From: Eledone cirrhosa | Taxonomy: Eukaryota | NCBI GenBank assembly: GCA_964016885.1 | Contig: OZ024755.1 | Span: 10,664,001 to 10,728,000 of the forward strand | Length of the DNA: 64,000 nt | Direction of reading: 5' to 3' | The notes under the pieces: generated by a model | The model's input: only the letters and a program-made list of their open reading frames with translations | The model's database searches: none | Told to the model about the DNA's origin: nothing | Shown: piece by piece, positions 5,137 through 56,054 of the stretch | How positions within the stretch are numbered: the stretch's first letter is position 1 | Layout: each line of letters starts with the position of its first letter | Position numbers and translations under genes: made by a program

Positions 5137-5173
<37 letters not shown>

Positions 5174-5177
<4 letters not shown>

Positions 5178-5357
5178 GTTTCTACGTTTTGCACAAGGCC
5201 TGCAATTACCCAGTGCATTACTGATACTTTATTTTATCGACCCCGTAAGGATGAAAGGCAAAGTTAACCTCGGCGGGATTTGAACTCAGAATGGCAAGGG
5301 CCGTAACTCTATGCGTCAAAGCATGGCGTCCGACTCTACCGATACTGCCAATCCACC
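5174..5357 (-). mobile_element. SINE family A, near full length
   Basis: Near-identical to 55137-55326; the 3' end abuts (TA)n. Confidence 0.9.
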
Positions 5358-6277: not shown

Positions 6278-6520
6278 TTGCTCCGAACGAATTGCCTGTG
6301 TCCGAAGTAACCTGCAGCCGTAGAATCAGCCAGATCCATACAGTGATCATGTCTCGAATTACCTGCCGGCGAAACAATTGTAACACGCAATAAACTGAGT
6401 CCAGATGCATCACTGATTTTTCGTTTTTTTAATACTATTCACACTCTGCTCTGTATGAATATTGAGTGCTGATTTTGGCATACCGCCTATGGAGGCACCA
6501 TAGCTACCATTATACCCACG
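6267..6520 (+). mobile_element. Penelope-like pseudo-LTR fragment in (TA)n, homologous to 50299-50611 (minus)
   Basis: Shared blocks: attgtaa..aataaa, gca.cactgatt.t.cgttt, actctgctctgta..a..at.gagtg and ggc.taccgc.ta.gga.gc. Flanked by TA repeats on both sides. Confidence 0.6.
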
Positions 6521-9225: not shown

Positions 9226-9231
<6 letters not shown>

Positions 9232-9488
9232 AGAAATGTAAGCTATCGCCGTATTTTGACTAAAGAAATTAAAGAAATTATTTAGCCTGATAGTGGAGTT
9301 AAGAACCCCCGGAGAAATGGAAGAAGATGAGTATTGACGTCAATACTCATCTTCTTCCATTTCTCCGAGGGTTCTTAACTCCACTATCAGACTAAATAAT
9401 TTCTTTAATTTCTTTAGTCAAACTACGGCGATAGCTTACATTTCTAATAATTTGAAATCAACTCGCTGTTTCGAAAATATTCTTACTT

Positions 9489-9492: not shown

Positions 9493-9525
<33 letters not shown>

Positions 9526-9528
<3 letters not shown>

Positions 9529-9708
9529 ATTAAATAAATGGAAACTATATTTATAAAACCATATTTATTTCGTTATATATATTTCAGGGATATCATATTA
9601 ACAATATGTTATGCCTTCTTCAGACAAAATACAATATAAACAGTCTTATAAATAAATAGATACGACATACCTTTCAATCACCTTGCATTTGGGAGGTTGA
9701 TTTGGCAG
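9526..9708 (-). mobile_element. Penelope-like pseudo-LTR fragment, same family as 25213-25659
   Basis: Highly similar to the left arm 25216-25398 and starts at the same boundary (gatattaaataaatgg) next to (TA)n. Confidence 0.8.
9566..9631 (-). ncRNA. Type I hammerhead ribozyme (minimal stem III)
   Basis: Minus strand: UAUUUUGU-CUGAAGA-AGG..CAUAUU GUU AAUAUG..CCU-GAAA-UAUAUA-UA-ACGAAAUA. Stem I is 8 bp, with G-C where the 25467 copy has G-U. Confidence 0.8.
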
Positions 9709-10384: not shown

Positions 10385-10577
10385 ATAGGAAAAAGTATGA
10401 CCACGACGGCAGAGCTCAAGCCGTTTCGACGGTTATTTCTGTCCAGAAATAGCCGTCGAAACGGCTTGAGCTCTGCCGCCGGGGTCATACTTTTTCCTAT
10501 TTCCCACTCTGCTACCCTAAGTATTGAGTACTCTGGTGCGTTATGGTCCATCTGGTTCCTTACCACAATTCCTTCGT
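10385..10577 (+). mobile_element. Palindromic hammerhead-derived element in (TA)n: 57-bp arms plus 77-nt tail
   Basis: 10385-10441 is the reverse complement of 10444-10500 (3 mismatches). The tail starts with cactc...gagta. Same family as 42460-42655. Confidence 0.85.
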
Positions 10578-10611
<34 letters not shown>

Positions 10612-11720: not shown

Positions 11721-11823
11721 GTATCCCGGGTTCAATCGGGGATAACCACAGTAAGTAAGGTACTCAATACATAGCAGAGTATAAATATTTAACACAGGAA
11801 TTAGACTCTTTCATTCGAAGGAA
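11721..11823 (-). mobile_element. Penelope-like tail fragment, same family as 29030-29150
   Basis: The reverse complement actctgctatgtattgagtaccttacttactgtggttatccccgattgaacccggg matches actctactatattgcgtaccttactaactgtggttaaccctgattgaacccggc at 29093-29146. Confidence 0.7.
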
Positions 11824-15432: not shown

Positions 15433-16071
15433 TGCAATGTTTTCGTATTCATATATCTATAGATGAGTCATTGATTTTAACTGATCGCCACGATAACCTT
15501 ACTAAGATATATCTTCACATTATATACACATTCAGTGTTATTGGTAGTTACGATTTACGCTTCTTTGTGTCTACTTCTTGCTGTTATGTATCAGCTTCGT
15601 TCAAGACTTTTCACATCACCAAATCAGTGTTAGAAGAAATAAGATGACACAACTCATTAAGAAATTGTATATCAATTGCATATTCATCATGCCTAGATCT
15701 AGTGTACATCTCTCTCACTCTCCTCCTCTTATTTTATTTATTTCTCTCTCTCTCCTTCAGCCTATATATATATTATACACACGCGCGCGCGCACACGCAC
15801 TTTAAATGACAGGTCAATATAAAATTAGTGTGTGTTCATTTGCTTGAAACTTTTACTAGATCTAATTAGTCCTAAATATGAACAAAGACGACAGTCAATT
15901 GATTTGGTTAAATACCGAACTAAACGTAAAATGACGAGGTTACTGACCTATTATCAACGCTGCATTTTCCCCGTGGCGAAGACTTTTAATACTCCACAGC
16001 ATTGAGATGGGTTATTAACATGGTTGCTTTAATTCATTACAGTAGGCTAAAATATCGGCATGAGATTAAAT

Positions 16072-16258
16072 AATTGATTCTACTTTAGGCACAAGGCCAG
16101 CAATTACCCAGTGCGTTACTGGTACTCTATTTTATCGACCCCCGTAAGGATGAAAGGCAAAGTCAACCTCGGCGGGATTTGAACTCAGATCGTAAAGGGA
16201 CGTAACTATGCTGGAAAGTATGGCGTCCGACACTACCGATACTGCCAATCCACCGCCC
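16072..16258 (-). mobile_element. SINE family A, full length, TSD TGAGATTAAATAAT
   Basis: Full family sequence. TSD at 16061-16074 and 16259-16272, and the right copy is additionally duplicated in tandem. Confidence 0.92.
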
Positions 16259-17751
16259 TGAGATTAAATAATGAGATTAAATAATGTTTGCGTATCGATT
16301 TAAAGTATTATTCCTTCCATATGAAAAGTTAAACTACATAAGTAGTGAATTAGGGTGGGGATAGTTGGGTTGTATACGGAGGACGTACATCATATGAGTC
16401 AACGGAAACTGTGCAGAAGGACTTCATGTATTTATATGTATATGTGTGTTTGTCAGTGTAGGCTTAGTGTTTGTTTGTGTCCAGTAATTGTTTGATTTAT
16501 CAATCGATGAAAAAGCGCCTGAATTGGAGAAAAAACAAGTTGGAGGTCTATGTGGTTGACTAAATCTCTTCAGGGTGGGGGTCACAGAATGACCGCAGTC
16601 TGATAACTGAAACCAGTAAAAGAATAAAAGGATAAATAATTCAGTTAATTTATTTGAACCTTCATACTTGAAAACATCAATCATTGAATCGCTTCTTTGA
16701 TATCATTAGCCTACTTCTAGCGAACGTGGTCTCACCTATTTTCATTGTTGACAGATCTACAGGAAAACTGAAACTAGTAGAATGTGTAGCCAATGAATTA
16801 CATTCGAAATACACACAGTGGACTTTAGTTCCTTACCTATGAGATTTCATGCGAATACCTTATTCACATGAGACGGGCCAAGTCGACATAATGTGTTTAT
16901 TCAATATAACTTATCTTGGTATAATGTAATCGACATAGTTGTACATATTTTTTTGTATTTATCAAACACGTAACTTCTTTTCTCCAATGAACAAGAACGA
17001 CATAAATTCTTATTATTGTATGTGGATATAGCTAAACTGGTAAGTTTCGTTTCTGCAATCGATACGTTAATTTGTAATCAATCCAAGGATTATATTTGAA
17101 ATCACCTACATATCAAATCGATATCTACAGTTTTTTGCCGTTGGTCAATCGAATCGTACAGAAAAAAGCCACCTTGGATCATGACTGGCCATGAGTTTTA
17201 TTTTCCGTGGTACAAGCTTGAGCAAGAATGTTTTGTGAAGACTATCAGTCACCCATACATGCCAATAACCACTATCCACGTCCCCCATGTCTCCAAGACC
17301 AACGCCACCACAACCAATTTCTTTTTCTAGCTGAAGAGACTGGTAAAACGAAAAATAAAATTTCTAGATCAAAAACACAATGTCCGACACCACCCCACCT
17401 CATCCGCCCGCCAAGAAATCGAAGTTGTGGTCTTTCTAATAAACCCTAACCACTGAACCACACTTTTCACATAGATCAGACCACTTAGAACTCACAAAGA
17501 CGTGGCATATATCCACGCTCCTATCGTTGACATGGGAAAGATTATTTTATAGATTCGTTTATATTTACTGGATTTATAGAAAGAGTAAATCTTTTATTTT
17601 GATATGATTTACGGCGATGTAGATAATGTATTGATATATCTTGAGAACCATAATATATCTGATAGTTTTACTACTGGCAATATATACTCTACAATAATCC
17701 TCTGGCGGATGCGTCTAAATTATCCTTCAAACTATATTTTATCTGTAAATA

Positions 17752-22884: not shown

Positions 22885-22887
<3 letters not shown>

Positions 22888-22952
22888 TCCAGTCCTACAA
22901 ACTGTAGAGTGCTACTTATTCGATATTTGCATTGTGCTACAATAAAACTCGC

Positions 22953-22961
<9 letters not shown>
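22885..22961 (+). mobile_element. Tail-only insertion in (TA)n starting at a TACTC...GAGTG hairpin
   Basis: 77 nt of unique sequence between two (TA)n tracts, starting tactccagtcctacaaactgtagagtgc, like the tails at 25580 and 10505. Confidence 0.55.
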
Positions 22962-23700: not shown

Positions 23701-25255
23701 AATAGATTTGTACATTTAACGTACATCAGAGTATGTTGTTCCTTTTTTCTTATATAATTACTTTCTGCTTACCACCTATACATGGACACTTATCAATTGA
23801 TGGAGCCCTACGTGATATGGGGTGTCTTGTGCATTATAATGAAGACAAAAGGAGTGGACGGACGTCAGGTTTGAAGGGCTTGAAAAGATTTGTAATGTTA
23901 CAGCAGGTAGTTTATTGGTTTGGGTGTTAAACTTAGTTTAATTCCTTCGAGTCGCGCATTGTGTTCTTTTACGAAATACTTTTTGGCGTAGCTCTTTCTG
24001 TTAGGAGCTGCGACCGGCTGATAGTGTCAGCAATAGAAAGACCAATAGAAAAAGAGATTGGTCCTATATCATGATCGACTTCTTTTTTTTCTGCGTTTTC
24101 CTTTTTTCCTTCAGCGTCTATGGTTTTATTTTAATGAAAATGATCAAAATTCAAAGACACACAATCAGTGAGACAGCGATAGGTAGAAAGAATCTTTGTT
24201 TGAAGGAAAGATAGTGCATATGTAGTTAAAACAATATAAAACGTTGGAGGGCTGTGAACTCTACGTAAAGATTTGAGATGCTTTAGATGGCTTCAGCATC
24301 AAATTAAATTTCTTGGTTTGGGTTTTAATAACGACACAATCTCCTAACTTAACGCATTTCTTATCTATATTTCATGTAACGATGGCTACACATTTCATCA
24401 GGTCGTTTACCTTCATCTGTGTAAACGGCTGACTCTCTATCTGGAGTCACCATCACCAACCAACACACTACGTCACTGTAAATACGCTGCCATCGCTGCT
24501 ATGACTCCTGCTTTTGTTGATGATGATGGTGATGCAGTAGATAAATTGTCAATAAATGGGGTGAAGAAAATTCGATAGAGATGTTAGGATCACGAAGAAG
24601 AAATGAGAGAAAATGTAAACAGAGGGGTGGATGAAGAGGGGTCGGGAAGGTGTGAAAAGAGAGGAGGGTGTGGATGGAATTGCAGAATTTAAATGCTACG
24701 TAAAAAGTAGAAATGAAGAGGATAATAAGGAGGGTGGATAGAAATATGTAAACTAAGGGGAGGAAAGAAAGCAATAGAGGATAATATATCAAGAGGAATT
24801 AGATAAGTGATAGAATATAAAACAAAGAAAGGATAGAAGAATTGGAATAAAGAAAGTGAGAGGAAGCAACTTACGATGAACGAATGAGAGGAGGGGGAAG
24901 GAGAACGTAACATGTGAATATTTGGAGGAGGAGACGACTTAGAATGCGAGAAGGAAAGCCAAGACATGGACGCTAAAAGATAAAGAGGTTTAGAGTAGAT
25001 TGGAGAAGAGACACAAGAGACTTGCTTAAGGAAATTAAATGATTGATAACAGTAAACAAGTGAAGGGTAATATATATAGACATTGAGAATGTGTGGGTGT
25101 GGGTGTGTGAGTGTGTGTGTGATTTATTTAATTTGTGCATATTTTTATATTTGTATTCCATACATCATACACACATATATGTACACATGCTTTAAATATA
25201 TATATATATATATACGATATTAAATAAATGGAAACTATATTTATAAAACCATATT

Positions 25256-25321
25256 TATTTCATTATATATATTTCAGGGATATCATATTAACAATATGCT
25301 ATGCCTTCCTCAGACAAAATA
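25256..25321 (-). ncRNA. Type I hammerhead ribozyme (inverted arm copy)
   Basis: Reverse complement of 25467-25532. Confidence 0.8.
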
Positions 25322-25466
25322 CAATATAAACAGTTTTATAAATAAATAGATTTGACATACCGTACAACATCGACTTGTATTTGAAAAGTTGAATTGGCAC
25401 TTTTCAAATACAAGTCGATGTTGTACGGTATGTCAAATCTATTTATCTATAAAACTGTTTATATTG

Positions 25467-25532
25467 TATTTTGTCTGAGGAAGGCATAGCATATTGTTAA
25501 TATGATATCCCTGAAATATATATAATGAAATA
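25467..25532 (+). ncRNA. Type I hammerhead ribozyme (minimal, self-complementary stem III region)
   Basis: UAUUUUGU-CUGAGGA-AGG..CAUAUU GUU AAUAUG..CCU-GAAA-UAUAUA-UA-AUGAAAUA. Stem I UAUUUUGU/AUGAAAUA; the core is intact. Confidence 0.82.
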
Positions 25533-25654
25533 AATATGGTTTTATAAATATAGTTTCCATTTATTTAATATCGTAAATATACTCCAAATACTTGTCGAGT
25601 GCTTTTATATCAGTTATAAATATTTACTAGTTGTAACCCAACAATTTAAATATA

Positions 25655-25685
<31 letters not shown>

Positions 25686-27830: not shown

Positions 27831-28170
27831 TGCGAGCGTGTTTGTGTTCATGTGAGTGTGTTTTCTTTTTATGTTAGTCGTTTGGGCTTTATTTTTCACC
27901 AATTCCATTCCTGCAACATAAAAAAAATATGTATCAACGAACCATCAATTAGATCTCATAAAGATTAATAATATAAGAGACACTATGGCTTCTATCGGCT
28001 ACACATTTCTTCATCATCAACACTAACATTTTCATTGTAAATATCATCACCTTTATCTGTGTCTACATTATCATCATCATCATCATTATCGTCACCACCA
28101 TCATCATCATTGTCATCATCATTGTCCTCATTATTACGATCAAAATAATGTTCATTATCATTTTCAACAA

Positions 28171-28357
28171 GGGCGGTGAATTGGCAGTATCGGTAGAGGG
28201 TCAGACGCCATGCTTTCCAGCATAGTTACGTCCCTTTACGGTCTGAGTTCAAATCTCGTCGAGGTTAATTTTGCCTTTCATCCTTACCAGGTCGATAAAA
28301 TAAAGTACCAGTTATGAACTGGATAATTGCTGGCCTTGTGCCAAAAGTAGAAACAAT
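28171..28357 (+). mobile_element. SINE family A, full length, TSD ATTATCATTTTCAACA
   Basis: Full family sequence; TSD at about 28154-28169 and 28356-28371. Confidence 0.92.
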
Positions 28358-28575
28358 TATCATTTTCAACATTGTGTTATCCCTTATCTTCATCAACAAC
28401 CTTTTGACTATATTAACATCTTCATTATCACTAATATCATCAACATCGTCTGCAACAACAGCAGTAGCAGCAGCAATAGCAACTTTATCAGCAGAAACAG
28501 CAATAGTAATAGTAGCAATGTCAACAGTAACAGTAAAACTATCATTAATGTTGGGTCATTATGTGCCAGTATCTT

Positions 28576-28764
28576 GGGCGGTGGATTGGCAGTATCGGTA
28601 GAGGGTCGGGCGCCATGCTTTGAAGCATAGAGTTACCTCCCTTTATGATCTGAGTTCAAATCCCGCCGAGGTTAACTTTGCCTTTCATCCTTACGGGGTC
28701 GATAAAATAAAGTACCAGTAATACACTGGTAATTGATGGCCTTGTGCTAAAAGTAGAAACAATT
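28576..28764 (+). mobile_element. SINE family A, full length, 18-bp TSD ATTATGTGCCAGTATCTT
   Basis: TSD at 28558-28575 and 28762-28779; A box tggcagtatcgg and B box gttcaaatccc. Confidence 0.95.
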
Positions 28765-29029
28765 ATGTGCCAGTATCTTACCTTTTTTTCTAATGTTGTG
28801 AATTGGCAGATGTTAGAACGTCGGACGGGATGATTCGTCATATTCGCTCCAGCTTGTTGGACTGTCTATTCGAATCCTGCCGATATCTACTTCGTCTCTC
28901 AGTATAAAATTTGAAAGTATACGAGTCAAATACTGGGATCGATCCTTCGCACTCACACAATCACACACACACTCTCTTTCTCTCTTTCTCTCTCTCTCTC
29001 TTTCTCTCGATATATATATATATATATAT

Positions 29030-29150
29030 CATGTTCAACATAAAAATGGTTTCTACAGGACTAGAACTGTTTCATTCAAAAGAAACATTTACACTCTACT
29101 ATATTGCGTACCTTACTAACTGTGGTTAACCCTGATTGAACCCGGCACTC
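29030..29150 (+). mobile_element. Penelope-like fragment in (TA)n with an inverted 5' segment and a tail
   Basis: The tail matches 11721-11781 in reverse, while acagga.tag..ct.tttcattc (29056-29077) has the same orientation as 11795-11816, so it is inverted relative to the tail. aaatggtttct and agaaacattt form an inverted pair. Confidence 0.65.
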
Positions 29151-32353: not shown

Positions 32354-32442
32354 ATTATTATTATTGCTTTTTCTTTTCCGGCAGTAGTGTTTCTGATATA
32401 TGCCAAGTGTCATCCTGACACCTATTATTACTATTATTATTA

Positions 32443-32630
32443 GGGCGGTGGATTGGCAGTATCGGTAGAGGGTCGGACGCCATGCTTTGCAGCATAGTTA
32501 CGTCCCTTTACGGACTGAGTTCAAATCCCGCCGAGGTTAACTTTGCCTTTCATCCTTACGGGGTCGATAAAATAAAGTACCAGTAATGCACTGGGTAATT
32601 GCTGGCCTTGTGCCTAAAGTAGAAACAATT
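32443..32630 (+). mobile_element. SINE family A, full length, TSD ATTATTACTATTATTATTA
   Basis: Full family sequence with tRNA A/B boxes; TSD on both sides. Confidence 0.93.
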
Positions 32631-33951
32631 ATTACTATTATTATTATTATTTTGATTATGATTGTTATTCTTACTTCGTTGTCTTCTGCTGCTCATGAGG
32701 ATGATGATGATGATCATGAAGTTGTTTCTATTTTGTGGTTGTCAGTTCAAGTGTCATATAATCCACTACCAGATTGTGACTGTATAAACAATGAAATAGA
32801 CGTAGTCGTCTACTTCGGCTTAAATTGTCCTGTCTTCCGGAAGACACAATTGAAGCAAAACGCCATCATTTCACAATTATCACTGTTATACAACGTACCT
32901 ATAAATATTACTGTCGTTCATCAATCTTCACTACAACCATATAGTCGACAATATCTGTTCAACTGCGTAGTTTCGGGTTGGATCCTAGTGATTCAAACCT
33001 AGCGAGTTTTTTTTTTTTCTATCATAATCATGAGTTTTCCAGAATATAAAAGAAATTTGCCATAATGAAACAACGTCGAGCCCTGTCGAGCGGTTGGTGG
33101 TATTGTTGGTGATTGTGGTGGTGGTGATGGCGGTGGAAGTTTCATGTCCTTGAGTAGTCAACATTATCCTGTTTACGAGGGTCAGCTGAAACATTCATAG
33201 CTTGACCAAGATACTATTATGGAGTAACCAAATGTGGTTCATTTCCTAACAGTCTCTGGAAAGTTTCAATGCAGTTATTAATAAGAAAAGTTAAAAATTA
33301 ATGCAAGCAAGATTTCACAGCCCTAGCATCAATTCTTCATTGTCAGCCGTACCTCGTAGTCCACTTAACTGGACCTTGTGTGTTTTTAACATTGTCCCAT
33401 CTAAGGTAAATATCCGAGCCAGGTCTATGACGTAAGAATAACTTCCTATCAGAGGCTTGAAAATTATAGTGTTATAACTGCTGTCGTTTCATCTGTCATT
33501 TAGCAGTAAAAGCATCTATAATTATGACAACCTAACACGTTATAATATACAATAATTGGTATTCCATGCGATAATAAAATTATTCTATCGCTTATCATAT
33601 TGTGCAATTCTATATATAATTCAATGAAACATTACTGTCAACACGTGAAACTAGTTACTTTCGTTTTGTTGTCCTTTATTTAAAGATAGTATAAGGTTTA
33701 CTTTCGGTAGGCGTAGAGTTACAATGTACATGGAGTGCATCTAGTTGCGAAATCTTTCTCTGAGTTTACCAGGCAAGTTTGGGGGACGAAATACGACCGG
33801 AGTTGTTAAAATCTTTAAATAGAACAATATGCTCTGGCTAACATACATGACAGGTAGCCTAGACCTCTGGAAAGGCATCATCACATATACATGCTCACAC
33901 TCCCACTCTCTCACTCACACTCTCACTCACTCACTCGCTCACCCACGCTCA

Positions 33952-38734: not shown

Positions 38735-39311
38735 TTGTTATACTTTGGGAGGGTCATGTTGCCAATAAGAAACACACGCACCAGTTGCTTTCACTTCAAT
38801 TTATTATATATTTATAAATTTATAAATTTACAAATTTACAAACTTATAAATTTCTGGTTGGTTGGTTGGTTCCACAACCAGATAGTTGTTTATATATAGT
38901 CATAGTCCTTTCGTCACACACTGTGACCTCTTCAGTGACTGGGGATTCCTTCTTTGTTTCTGTGCCTTTTGTGCCTTTCCTTTCTTCTATCCTACGCCAT
39001 TTTGTTTCTGTGTGTGTGTTGTTTGCTCAGTTTGCGCATGCGCCACATCCGGGTGTTTGTGTGTGTTTGTGTTCATTTATCTATTTGTTTATTTATTTAT
39101 TTATTTATTTATTGTTGGTTGGTTGTTTGTTCTGTGTGTGTGTGTTTTCATTTTGTCCTGTGTGTTTTCATTTTGTCCTTAATTGTAAGTTGTTTGTTTT
39201 ATGTGTGCGTGTGTTTCTTATTGGCAACATGACCCTCCCAAAGTATAACAATATCGGTTTCAACACACGATTTCAGATAAAGAATCTTGCTAAACAAATT
39301 CAGAAACGAAA
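38735..39311 (+). mobile_element. Penelope-like insertion within the satellite: long inverted segment, 47-bp inverted repeat, ~60-nt tail
   Basis: 38735-38781 is the perfect reverse complement of 39205-39251. A hammerhead and an AATAAA lie on the minus strand inside. Tail 39252-39311. Confidence 0.75.
38898..38940 (-). ncRNA. Minimal type I hammerhead ribozyme
   Basis: Minus strand: AGUCA-CUGAAGA-G-GUCACA GUG UGUGAC-GAAA-G GA C-UA-UGACU. Stem I 5 bp, stem II 6 bp (one extra G after the core), minimal stem III. Confidence 0.75.
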
Positions 39312-40223
39312 TGTATATATATGTATATCTGTATATATATATGTATATCTGTATATATATGTATATCTGTATATATATGTATATCTGTATATATATGTAT
39401 ATCTGTATATATATGTATATCTGTATATATATGTATATCTGTATATCTATGTATATCTGTATATATATGTATATCTGTATATATATGTATATCTGTATAT
39501 ATATGTATATATATGTATATCTGTATATATATGTATATCTGTATATATATGTATATCTGTATATATATGTATATCTGTATATATATGTATATCTGTATAT
39601 ATATGTATATCTGTATATATATGTATATCTGTATGTATATGTATATATATCTGTATGTATATCTGTATATATATGTATATATATCTGTATATGTATGTAT
39701 ATATATATGTATATATATCTGTATATGTATGTATATATATATGTATGTGTATCTGTATATGTATGTGTATGTATATCTGTATATATATATATATATGTGT
39801 ATGTATATCTGTATATATATATATATATGTGTATGTATATCTGTATATATATATATATATGTGTATGTATATCTGTATATATATATATATATGTGTATGT
39901 ATATCTGTATATATATATATATATGTGTATGTATATCTGTATATATATATATATATGTGTATGTATATCTGTATATATATATGTGTATGTATATCTGTAT
40001 ATATATATATATATATGTGTATGTATATCTGTATATATATATATATATATGTGTATGTATATCTGTATATATATATATATATGTGTATGTATATCTGTAT
40101 ATATGTATATATATGTGTATGTATATCTCTATATATATCTGTATGTATGTATATCTCTATATATATCTGTATGTATGTATATCTCTATATATATCTGTAT
40201 GTATGTATATCTCTATATATATG

Positions 40224-42459: not shown

Positions 42460-42655
42460 TAATAAGAACGAGTAGGACCCCGACGGCTGAGCTCAAGCCG
42501 TCTGGACGGCTAATTCTAGTCCAGAATTAGCCGTCGAAACGGCTTGAGCTCAGCCGTCGGGGTCCTACCCGTTCCTATTACCCACTCTACTACCCTAAGT
42601 ATTGAGTACTTTGGTGCGTTATGGTCCACCTGGTTCCTTACCACATTTCCTTCGT
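42460..42655 (+). mobile_element. Palindromic hammerhead-derived element in (TA)n: 58-bp arms plus 75-nt tail
   Basis: 42460-42517 is the reverse complement of 42523-42580 (4 mismatches). Contains GAAA-CGGCU-UGAGCUC-AGCCG-UC. The tail is nearly identical to 10501-10577. Confidence 0.85.
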
Positions 42656-49897: not shown

Positions 49898-50298
49898 GCA
49901 AGCAAAGGGGGGAGGGAGGGGTGGAGGGAAATTATATATACATACATATATACATATATACAGGTTGTGCCAAAACTGTATACACACATCAACAGCATTC
50001 TAATAAATATATTGCCTGTACAAGTAATCAAAGTGTGTGCACATTTTTGTGGGGTAGTATGTATGTATGTATGTATCTCTCTGCACTTGTCGTCACATGG
50101 TACCATGGGCCCAGCACTGTGTCAATAATTGTCACAGGTGTAGTGTTTGTACCAGAGTTTTCAAGTCGCTGGCTGGACTAAAAAGTCACACTCGCTCAGT
50201 GCATCGGTAGGGGTTCTCCTACATGGATATAAAGTAGTGGCCGTACTTGAAAACGAGTTGGCAGCCACCATGTATGTATGTGTGTGTATATATATATA

Positions 50299-50611
50299 AT
50301 TGGTGTTGGATGCTTAAAGCGTCCGTAAGCGGTAGGCCGTTTGACCACTCGATGCTCTTACAGAGCAGAGTATATCACATAAGAAACGGAGAATCAGTGG
50401 TGCGACGAATAAAATTTATTAGACATATTACAATCGTCTTTGGCGACCAGCTCGAGGCACGATCGATGTAATGATCGAACCTGACTCTGAAATCGCAAGG
50501 TCCTCAGGAACGTCTCGATTCTACGTAGAGTTCTGGTCGCCAGAGAAACGATTGTAATATGTCTAATAAATGATATTCGCCGCAACACTGAGTCTCCGTT
50601 TCCCGTGTGAT
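50299..50611 (-). mobile_element. Penelope-like inverted pseudo-LTR element with degenerate hammerhead and tail
   Basis: Arms 50374-50450 and 50533-50611 are inverted. The spacer has minus-strand CUGAGGA and stem I-like pairing. The minus tail starts tactctgctctgtaagagcatcgagtg and ends at (TA)n. Homologous to 6267-6520. Confidence 0.7.
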
Positions 50612-54974: not shown

Positions 54975-55136
54975 TCTTTCTATTTTTCCGTCTCCAGGGG
55001 TAAGTTATCAAATTCATTCAACTAATTCATGTATTGCTGTAGATTTTCAAATAAAAAAGCAACAGGTATAGAATTTTACAAAAGTTAACAATTAATTATT
55101 GAAGCTCAAATAAACTTTGAATTATATTCAATTTAT

Positions 55137-55326
55137 AATTGTTTCTACTTTTGGCACAAGGCCAGCAATTATCCAGTGCATTGCTGGTACTTTATTTTAT
55201 CGACCCCATAAGGATGAAAGACAAAGTTAACCTCGACGGGATTTGAACTCAGAATGGCAAGGGCCGTAACTCTATGCATCAAAGCATGGCGTCCGACCTT
55301 CTACCGATACTGCTAATCCACCGCCC
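55137..55326 (-). mobile_element. SINE family A, full length
   Basis: Full family sequence; imperfect TSD ttattcaatttataat / ttatttagtttataat. Confidence 0.92.
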
Positions 55327-56054
55327 TTATTTAGTTTATAATGATTCATTGACAGTATTAAATTTACATCCAGGGCATTGTAAAAAAATAAAAAAGAGAG
55401 ACCATGGTTGTTACTAAGCAGATAGCTATAACAATATTTGATAATTATTTAGAATAGTTTCAATGAAATGGGTTAAAATACAGTAGGAGACTGAAACTAT
55501 AACGCTAGATAGCAATAGAAGTGTTGAAACTATAAAAATAGATAACTATAATTGTTTCTGCTATAATGATAGTTGATAACCATAAATAATTGTTGAATAA
55601 AATCGCTCCAAGTTCCGCTGGAGACGACAAAACGAGGACTGCATTCACATTTTCTGTATCAACTAATATTAGAGTTACCTGCATCATAGTTATTTTTTTT
55701 TTTTTTTAAATCTTGCAATGTTTTGCAAATTAATCTAGTTAGTTTTTTCTCGTTCCTTCGAAATGTTTAATGATACGTATTATTGTACGTAAATTAAAAT
55801 GATTGTTATAAAAGCAATAGAGTATGCTATAAGTAGAAACTGTTGCTATAGCAGTCCCGTTAGCGATATTAAGATTTTGTAATCGACGCCATTCTATTTC
55901 AGCTCAATTTAATGACGCCCCTAAAATGCATAGATGTCCTTAAAATATATATGAATACCTAGAATCTTGATTAAAAATTAGCTGATTTCATATTCAAATA
56001 CAAAATAACCGCATCTATAGCAATGAAACTACATATAGATAGTTTATATGTATA

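Follow-up and report, generated by a model that had tools for sequence, protein, structure and literature searches.

An apparently undescribed pair of bulged hairpins marks both ends of Hydra-type PLE insertions

Introduction

In L1 twin priming, two 3′ ends at the target prime on the element RNA and a 5′ inversion results; the second start is unprogrammed, and the two segments do not overlap. For roughly two decades there has been no settled account of how PLE inverted repeats and tails originate. Members of the Hydra clade are characterized by RW[KR] and DKT motifs, by CxCx5C, CxxC and CxH signatures, and by (TA)n targets (Craig et al. 2021, PMC8557442), and minimal hammerheads are a conserved RNA motif in the pLTR of PLEs (Cervera and de la Pena 2014, PMC4209133). 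The sole in vitro study, with the Poseidon protein, found reverse transcription from two internal sites bracketing the tail, with both DNA strands cut and extended, and gave no defined signal for the starts (Frangieh et al. 2024, PMC11167929). The reaction depended on RNA located 3′ of the starts and did not require hammerhead cleavage, and a dimer was predicted (PMC11167929). The Hydra clade, the inverted copy plus tail, and the two starts of reverse transcription (Poseidon) are already known.

The genome of Eledone cirrhosa (3.0 Gb) is AT-rich and contains many (TA)n tracts. The window studied here comprises 64,000 nt of the forward strand (GCA_964016885.1, contig OZ024755.1, 10,664,001-10,728,000).

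Results

The focal insertion and its relatives in the window

The focal element is 190 bp long, bounded by two (TA)n runs, and ordered as a palindrome (10385-10500), a hairpin (HP1) and about 45 nt more (Table 1). The 5′ edge of its direct arm lies at about -65 to -70 relative to HP1. As a DNA query it returned 3988 first-look candidate matches in the genome, and all 20 candidate loci examined had the same build, with varying centres.

Eight sites of a YACTC-N(9-17)-GAGTR hairpin at the start of the tail had been listed for this window in a sequence-only reading. All eight were found where it placed them, seven fitting the strict pattern and the one at 29092 carrying the mismatch that had been named. 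The pattern with a loop of 9-17 nt is above chance, occurring eight times in the window whereas 200 block shuffles averaged 0.93 and never exceeded 5; one of these eight matches (48790), outside the earlier list, has no PLE context.

Table 1. Positions in the window of the focal insertion, its hairpin and related copies
Feature	Position	Strand	Remarks
Inverted arm, focal family-A mini-insertion	10388..10440	-	Outer end adjoins (TA)n at HP1 foot; centre approximate
Direct arm, focal copy (3′ part of pLTR)	10441..10500	+	Holds 3′ half of hammerhead-like fold
HP1 of focal copy	10506..10532	+	The hairpin of the finding
Focal HP1, lower stem	10506-09/10526-29		
Focal HP1, upper stem	10510-13/10520-23		
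Focal HP1, loop	10514-19		
Focal HP1, bulge	10524-25		2 nt, 3′ side
Focal HP1, RCU	10530-32		Conserved, 3′ side
Family-A tail, focal copy	10501..10578	+	Stops at (TA)n, ~6 nt before HP2 place in intact copies
Second family-A mini-insertion	42460..42655	+	Palindrome 42460-42580, HP1 42584-42610, then tail
Family-B mini-insertion	25207..25657	+	Palindrome 25207-25581, HP1 25581-25603, tail
Canonical hammerhead core, family-B copy	25475-25516	+	
Family-C tail-only insertion in (TA)n	22886..22961	+	Starts at HP1 (22886-22913)
Family-D copy	11725..11790	-	HP1 11759-11780
Second family-D copy	29030..29150	+	HP1 29093-29112 with mutated 3′ arm; short non-overlapping inverted segment upstream
Family-E palindromic copy	50298..50602	-	HP1 50344-50371
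Family-E2 copy without inverted arm	6280..6519	+	HP1 6443-6470

The window holds other repeats as well. A further palindrome in (TA)n with 108-bp arms (9226-9480) has a short tail with a motif-like 5′ arm 9 nt past the arm end and an altered 3′ arm. At 9503-9707 lies an older tailless family-B-like segment, 91% identical to 25193-25399, which ends at (TA)n at the HP1 foot. Abundant 190-bp repeats, 86-94% alike and SINE-like by build, occur at 5168-5357, 16069-16259, 28170-28360, 28576-28766, 32442-32632 and 55131-55327.

The families are of Hydra type

The listed sites had been taken to represent unrelated families, which does not hold. The copies at 10505 and 42583 belong to one family (89% over 228 nt), as do those at 11781 and 29092 (86% over 65 nt), and five of the six window families (A-E) were traced to homologous ORFs of one protein lineage, whose proteins are 34-47% identical. 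Because of these homologous ORFs, the families are kin, yet they are unalignable as DNA. Family A, the focal one, is present as 3531-bp tandem units with an intact ORF of 717 aa from Met; intact frames of 745 codons and 821 codons are found in family B (unit about 3840 bp) and family C (22885; unit about 3895 bp), respectively, and families D (11781, 29092) and E (50372) have broken ORFs.

As in the Hydra clade, a single ORF encodes RT together with a C-terminal GIY-YIG endonuclease (domains assigned from motifs; the family-B protein had no Pfam match), and insertion is into (TA)n. The RW motif reads RWR in A and B and RWT in C; DKT, the CxCx5C linker, and CxxC and CxH near the endonuclease end are present in all three. 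The GIY-YIG core has one cysteine only (by eye) and lacks CCHH, again as in that clade. Among metagenome ORFs of relatives (see below), the RWK motif was found in 37 of 43 and DKT in 43 of 43. Canonical hammerhead core boxes are predicted in the pLTR of B, C and D. In family A, stems I-III and GAAA are kept, but intact tandem copies have an altered CUGANGA box; because its hammerhead core is non-canonical, we term family A a Hydra-type variant and no textbook member. The size of less than 3 kb given as a descriptive character of the clade is exceeded by the units of A, B and C (3531 to about 3895 bp) because of long 3′ UTRs. In a midpoint-rooted protein tree of four ORFs of this genome and 43 metagenome ORFs, with no named Hydra reference, the four genome ORFs fell together on one side of a branch against the 43 others, with support of 100/100. 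By the clade characters of Craig et al., the motif-bearing families are, as read from their sequences, Hydra-type PLEs. A Helitron/HINE end or a tRNA-like SINE head was dropped once RT-GIY-YIG ORFs were found, and no relatives were detected among viral contigs.

A signal universal to PLE tails was ruled out, as two motif-free palindromic families trace to non-Hydra ORFs. The first has a 1329-codon ORF with DKS, a CX4CxxC linker and a tail inside the ORF start, and in the second the ORF is broken, again with a CX4CxxC linker; neither family is of Hydra type. Copies of the 1329-codon family (window 39150-39320, L274-L276) show the inverted-arm-plus-tail build in the absence of the motif, their tail of 54-60 nt falling within the first ORF codons, and provide a control for another start signal.

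Several other loci deserve mention. In family A, near-identical units of 3531-3543 bp with intact ORFs, such as the one at L225:3957-6107 (+ strand), are arrayed head to tail (L225, L226, L229, L230); the family is young and, with its altered CUGANGA box, may not self-cleave. One locus (L277) holds a further Hydra-type family with a 2-kb 3′ UTR, a canonical hammerhead and a tailless end at (TA)n; nested in that TA run is a non-Hydra element, and different PLE families are often stacked in a single microsatellite. In a family-D copy at L281:1900-2100, the tail is duplicated head to tail and the second unit begins inside HP1.

A bulged hairpin with a covarying upper stem

In the hairpin, a 4-bp RCUC/GAGY lower stem is separated by a 2-nt UH bulge from an upper stem that covaries, and RCU follows on the 3′ side. 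The earlier pattern was thus too narrow, the outer pair being mostly G-C and the loops ranging from 8 to 32 nt, and what had been described as a plain loop contains the bulge and a second stem. The structure was analysed in 72 hairpins, dereplicated to 48, which had been selected solely by the lower stem and the two bases after it. The outer pair was G-C in 32, A-U in 11 and other in 5, and the 3′ bulge of 2 nt was UU in 25, UC in 12, UA in 7 and other in 4; ACU or GCU followed on the 3′ side in 42 of the 48, with the upper stem free in sequence. When the bulge was set at 2 nt, contiguous upper-stem pairs averaged 2.69, compared with at most 0.62 at 0, 1, 3 and 4 nt.

The first upper pair was C-G in 24 and U-A in 17 hairpins. 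Upper pairs 1-3 held in 43, 38 and 35 of 48, against 34, 22 and 18 in partner shuffles; the observed values were reached in 0 of 5000 shuffles, a kind of count that kinship inflates. On the protein tree (28 labelled rows), the first upper pair of HP1 switched between C-G and U-A at least four to five times. Covariation, for which the sequence-only reading had proposed a test, is present: the upper stem stays paired while its letters change, which points to a single strand. The strand itself is hardly fixed by wobble pairs, with 13 G-U versus 8 A-C in upper pairs 1-3. The bulged hairpin is the MFE structure in three of eight window copies, the focal copy not among them, with z-scores from -2.0 to +0.55; thermodynamic support for the fold is weak, and the hairpin may need a protein to fold.

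In some families, HP1 has a loop of 32-50 nt and retains the lower stem, bulge and 3′ flank (L127:2700-2812, L085:6255-6330, L046, L114:3078-3170), and the apical part seems free in size.

A second hairpin lies just beyond the tail

The motif had been seen as a single hairpin. Intact elements in fact carry two, HP1 and, just beyond the tail end, HP2, both between the hammerhead and the ATG. An alignment of 14 relatives gave 76 metagenome loci, taken from the best 80 of 232 matches. In 21 of the 76, a hammerhead lies 80-260 nt upstream of the ORF. Between hammerhead and ATG, these 21 leaders have at least two hairpins in 16 cases, one by the strict rule in 5, and zero in none, and two were present in 0.1% of shuffled leaders and 0.5% of 815 ORF windows. 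The spacing of HP1 and HP2 was 55-70 nt in 14 of the 16, the two short values being due to extra matches. The proteins concerned are 28-86% identical (median 48). When 18 leaders were aligned by MAFFT, blind to the motif, the conserved blocks were the hammerhead GAAA and the hairpin arms.

From these metagenome leaders, HP2 was predicted to lie just beyond the tail in this genome and was then found by pattern search. Family A, whose HP2 is absent from the window, gave 506 pattern matches (several per site counted; reversed control 0), family C 270 and family E 12, in five distinct leaders; HP2 is also present in intact family-B copies. A first pattern for family D gave 52 matches, mostly flanks, and its leader was recovered by DNA search instead; the HP2 variant there, seen in 9 of 11 leaders, has one stem pair swapped, a 5-nt loop and no bulge. 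HP1-HP2 spacing is 78, 90, 90, 71 and 79 nt in families A, B, C, D and E, respectively.

Six Hydra consensus sequences contained in the covered part of PMC8557442 were inspected by eye. Canonical hairpins were present in Hydra-2_Amil (coral) and in the sea cucumber consensus sequences Hydra-2_Ajap and Hydra-1_Ajap, the latter with two copies and starting 2 nt before the first; variants were present in Hydra-1_Crog and Hydra-1_Amil, and none was evident in Hydra-1_Obim. Rfam gave no match in the window at gathering score, nor any with E up to 0.5 for 10 metagenome loci, a search of limited sensitivity because the hammerheads were missed too.

Insertions end at the two hairpins, one end at each

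An inverted-repeat scan blind to the motif covered 664 kb, made up of the window, the adjoining 200 kb and 40 blocks of 10 kb across contigs. It returned 48 inverted repeats, 34 of them with (TA)n on one side only. In 22 of these 34 the motif lies within about 10 nt of the arm end, and two more are mutated copies of motif-carrying families.

Among the (TA)n-flanked ends of families A-E in this unselected 664 kb (n = 70, excluding 17 segment ends that lacked a (TA)n flank), 31 lie at HP1, 34 at HP2 and 5 elsewhere, where an end "at" a hairpin is within 14 nt 5′ of it and 8% would be expected in the two windows. In selected loci, fetched for other reasons, the numbers were 104, 112 and 9 (n = 225). 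Metagenome 3′ ends, inspected by eye, were alike: several reach (TA)n a short way before HP1 and stop there, and others do so about 55 nt past the HP1 start. Family-D ends at HP2 are more scattered. In most copies the TA run starts 4-12 nt ahead of the hairpin, and element and junction have A/T letters in common. The distance from hairpin to inversion boundary is thus non-random, as had been proposed, with ends clustering within 14 nt 5′ of the hairpins. The narrower distance of 1-4 nt given for the inverted arm stood at 10500 (4 nt) and 42580 (2 nt); at 25207-25581 it is blurred by shared A/T letters, and at 50383 the gap from BLAST arm to hairpin is 10 nt.

The two kinds of end are used together. 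Head-to-head pairs in the unselected sequence combined HP1 with HP2 in 19 of 21 cases and had one off-site end in the other two, with no like pairs; 15 of the 21 belong to family A, and a few may be local duplicates. In the selected loci 42 of 45 pairs were mixed and none was like, where a free choice of ends would give like pairs half of the time. The far ends of long insertions were examined in 10 of 30 full-length family-B loci, those with a visible inverted arm end. All ten were as predicted, seven with the inverted arm at HP1 having the far end at HP2 and three with it at HP2 having the far end at HP1; the reference copy, not counted, also fits.

Two fixed insertion ends therefore bracket the tail, as with Poseidon, and the PLE tail is the HP1-HP2 spacing less a few bases, about 60-85 nt here. 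The hammerhead cut was ruled out as the boundary: the arms extend across the predicted cut site, and between families the distance from cut to HP1 varies, from about 24 nt in A to about 55 in B.

Short copies also share a hard 5′ edge. Of 40 segments in family A, 30 extend to -70 to -56 and none beyond, and B and C show pile-ups; the edge falls on a TTCA initiator-like word at about -70 (A; L225:7227-7267), -194 (B) and -175 (C) from HP1. This edge is probably a transcription start inside the pLTR, where Penelope transcripts begin (PMC2377424), and the mini-palindromes are, we infer from both, likely copies of the mRNA leader.

Discussion

A proposed model of two docking sites

What the sequence shows directly is the presence of two hairpins with a covarying fold, the positions of the two ends, and the combination of one HP1 end with one HP2 end in each head-to-head insertion. 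We consider it probable on this basis that HP1 and HP2 are RNA docking sites that start reverse transcription on two cut DNA strands, so that insertions end 5′ of each. Since HP2 is not copied and lies outside the insertion, it cannot act on the cDNA and must act on the template or the donor; it likely acts on the template RNA, where it would dock one of two RT-endonuclease subunits. In such a process, the pLTR transcript would carry hammerhead, HP1, spacer, HP2 and ORF; two putative subunits would bind HP1 and HP2 and cut both strands of the (TA)n target; and a short A/U patch, 3-12 nt 5′ of the respective hairpin, would pair with each 3′-OH, from which cDNA would be primed internally. The two cDNAs would extend toward the RNA 5′ end and be joined head to head, the HP2-primed strand bearing spacer and HP1, which form the tail, and the HP1-primed strand giving the tailless inverted arm. 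An HP2 strand that stopped at HP1 would leave a tail-only insert. The behaviour of Poseidon in vitro, with its two internal starts around the tail, offers a precedent (PMC11167929).

Against the docking model stand the weak folding and wobble results, the deviant HP2 of family D, the published Hydra consensus sequences with a variant motif or none, and three further observations: 5 of 21 metagenome leaders have one strict hairpin only; both arms cover the same sequence in most short copies, so that strand displacement or a second RNA template would be required; and with Poseidon the start site did not differ between strands (PMC11167929). The fuller version, programmed twin priming, in which one RNA with two 20-30 nt bulged hairpins and an RT-endonuclease dimer gives one start per strand, is put forward tentatively, at a little short of an even chance.

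Other readings of the hairpins

An unlikely alternative is that the hairpins are RNA cutting sites, with the element's own protein or a host nuclease cleaving the RNA immediately 5′ of HP1 or HP2 before target-primed reverse transcription from the 3′ end. Both end positions and the loss of HP2 are explained as well as by docking, but two independent RNA pools should give about half like pairs, and none was seen among 19 classified pairs and 10 long insertions; Poseidon, moreover, starts internally on uncut RNA (PMC11167929).

We regard as very unlikely a signal in DNA, whereby the GIY-YIG endonuclease would recognise the motif in donor DNA or an intermediate and resolve it there, leaving the tail on one side. 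Craig et al. attribute the tail to endonuclease-mediated resolution (PMC8557442), the Penelope endonuclease requires the tail for DNA recognition (as cited in PMC11167929), and the strand asymmetry of wobble pairs is weak. Against this, the upper stem stays paired as letters change, which indicates a single strand, and HP2 is in neither the cDNA nor the target, the ends joining new (TA)n sites directly.

Close to the earlier reading is single priming at the tail end, with the cDNA folding back or switching template and HP1 as the stop or switch signal. Tail-only inserts that begin exactly at HP1 (window 22886 and four unpaired tail-only copies) and the near-perfect palindromes of short copies fit it. 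It is nonetheless highly improbable: tailless direct ends with tailed inverted arms occur (3 of 10), the HP1 arm is often longer, which fold-back on the first cDNA cannot produce, and an equivalent hairpin sits at the supposed sole start. Least probable is a role in translation, packaging or RNA stability, with ends set by A/U patches pairing with the (TA)n primer. HP2 does lie shortly before the ATG, and the ends share A/T microhomology with the target. But although leaders contain many A/U patches, two 14-nt windows (8% expected) take up 65 of 70 ends, with the same offset across five families with different spacers.

Of the roles first suggested (RT or endonuclease recognition, priming, template switching), priming is thus favoured: the pLTR/tail boundary is one of two equivalent ends, each beside its own hairpin, which speaks against a template-switch or fold-back stop; the reader molecule and the action on RNA are what we infer. 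What stands of the proposed cis-acting signal is a conserved, covarying structure tied to the pLTR/tail boundary; the unrelated families and the single hairpin do not.

Significance

The paired motif is real and clade-wide, marks both ends of Hydra-type PLE insertions, and is apparently undescribed. That the motif had not been described, as the sequence-only reading supposed, agrees with our searches, in which it was not found in print; neither the hairpin, its duplication nor the strict pairing of ends was found in the literature or Rfam, in a search that covered supplements in part, where they may appear. The hairpin is a marker for the ends and the non-autonomous copies of the clade, and the pair accounts for short palindromes that form a very abundant class in this genome. 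A duplicated, covarying motif gives exact mutants (stem, bulge, spacing, one hairpin or two), and intact young ORFs of about 720-800 aa are at hand for tests.

If twin priming is true, the hairpin would be a portable start tag, usable at any RNA position; hairpin spacing would account for the inverted pLTR and the tail of PLEs; and ordinary mRNA would yield the thousands of leader-only palindromes. Because the start tags would sit at the mRNA's 5′ end, tandem read-through or circles made by the hammerhead would be required for full-length copies. Telomerase starts at an internal RNA site set by structure. A portable tag would be of interest for RNA-templated DNA insertion and for comparing the PLE RT with its sister, telomerase.

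Comparison with known systems

In contrast to L1 twin priming, both starts here would be set by RNA structure, and the arms usually overlap. The PLE hammerhead (PMC4209133) lies directly upstream of HP1 and is a separate motif, as the insertions pass its cut site and end at the hairpins. With the Hydra clade as described in PMC8557442, the elements share the single RT and GIY-YIG ORF, the pLTR hammerhead, and the inverted 5′ copy plus tail. The hairpin pair is not described in the covered text of that paper, though it is visible in its consensus sequences; tails of 30-40 nt are stated there for PLEs, compared with about 60-85 nt here, where units are 3.5-3.9 kb. With Poseidon PAc (PMC11167929), they share two starts, predicted here, that bracket the tail, and an AT-rich DNA target. 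The PAc starts are described, in the part of the paper covered, at an AC-rich stem-loop inside the ORF, with no conserved repeated motif and no pairing of strand to site. Unlike in Poseidon, each predicted start here has a conserved hairpin of its own, the leader that holds the hairpins is untranslated, and an insertion has its two ends at different sites.
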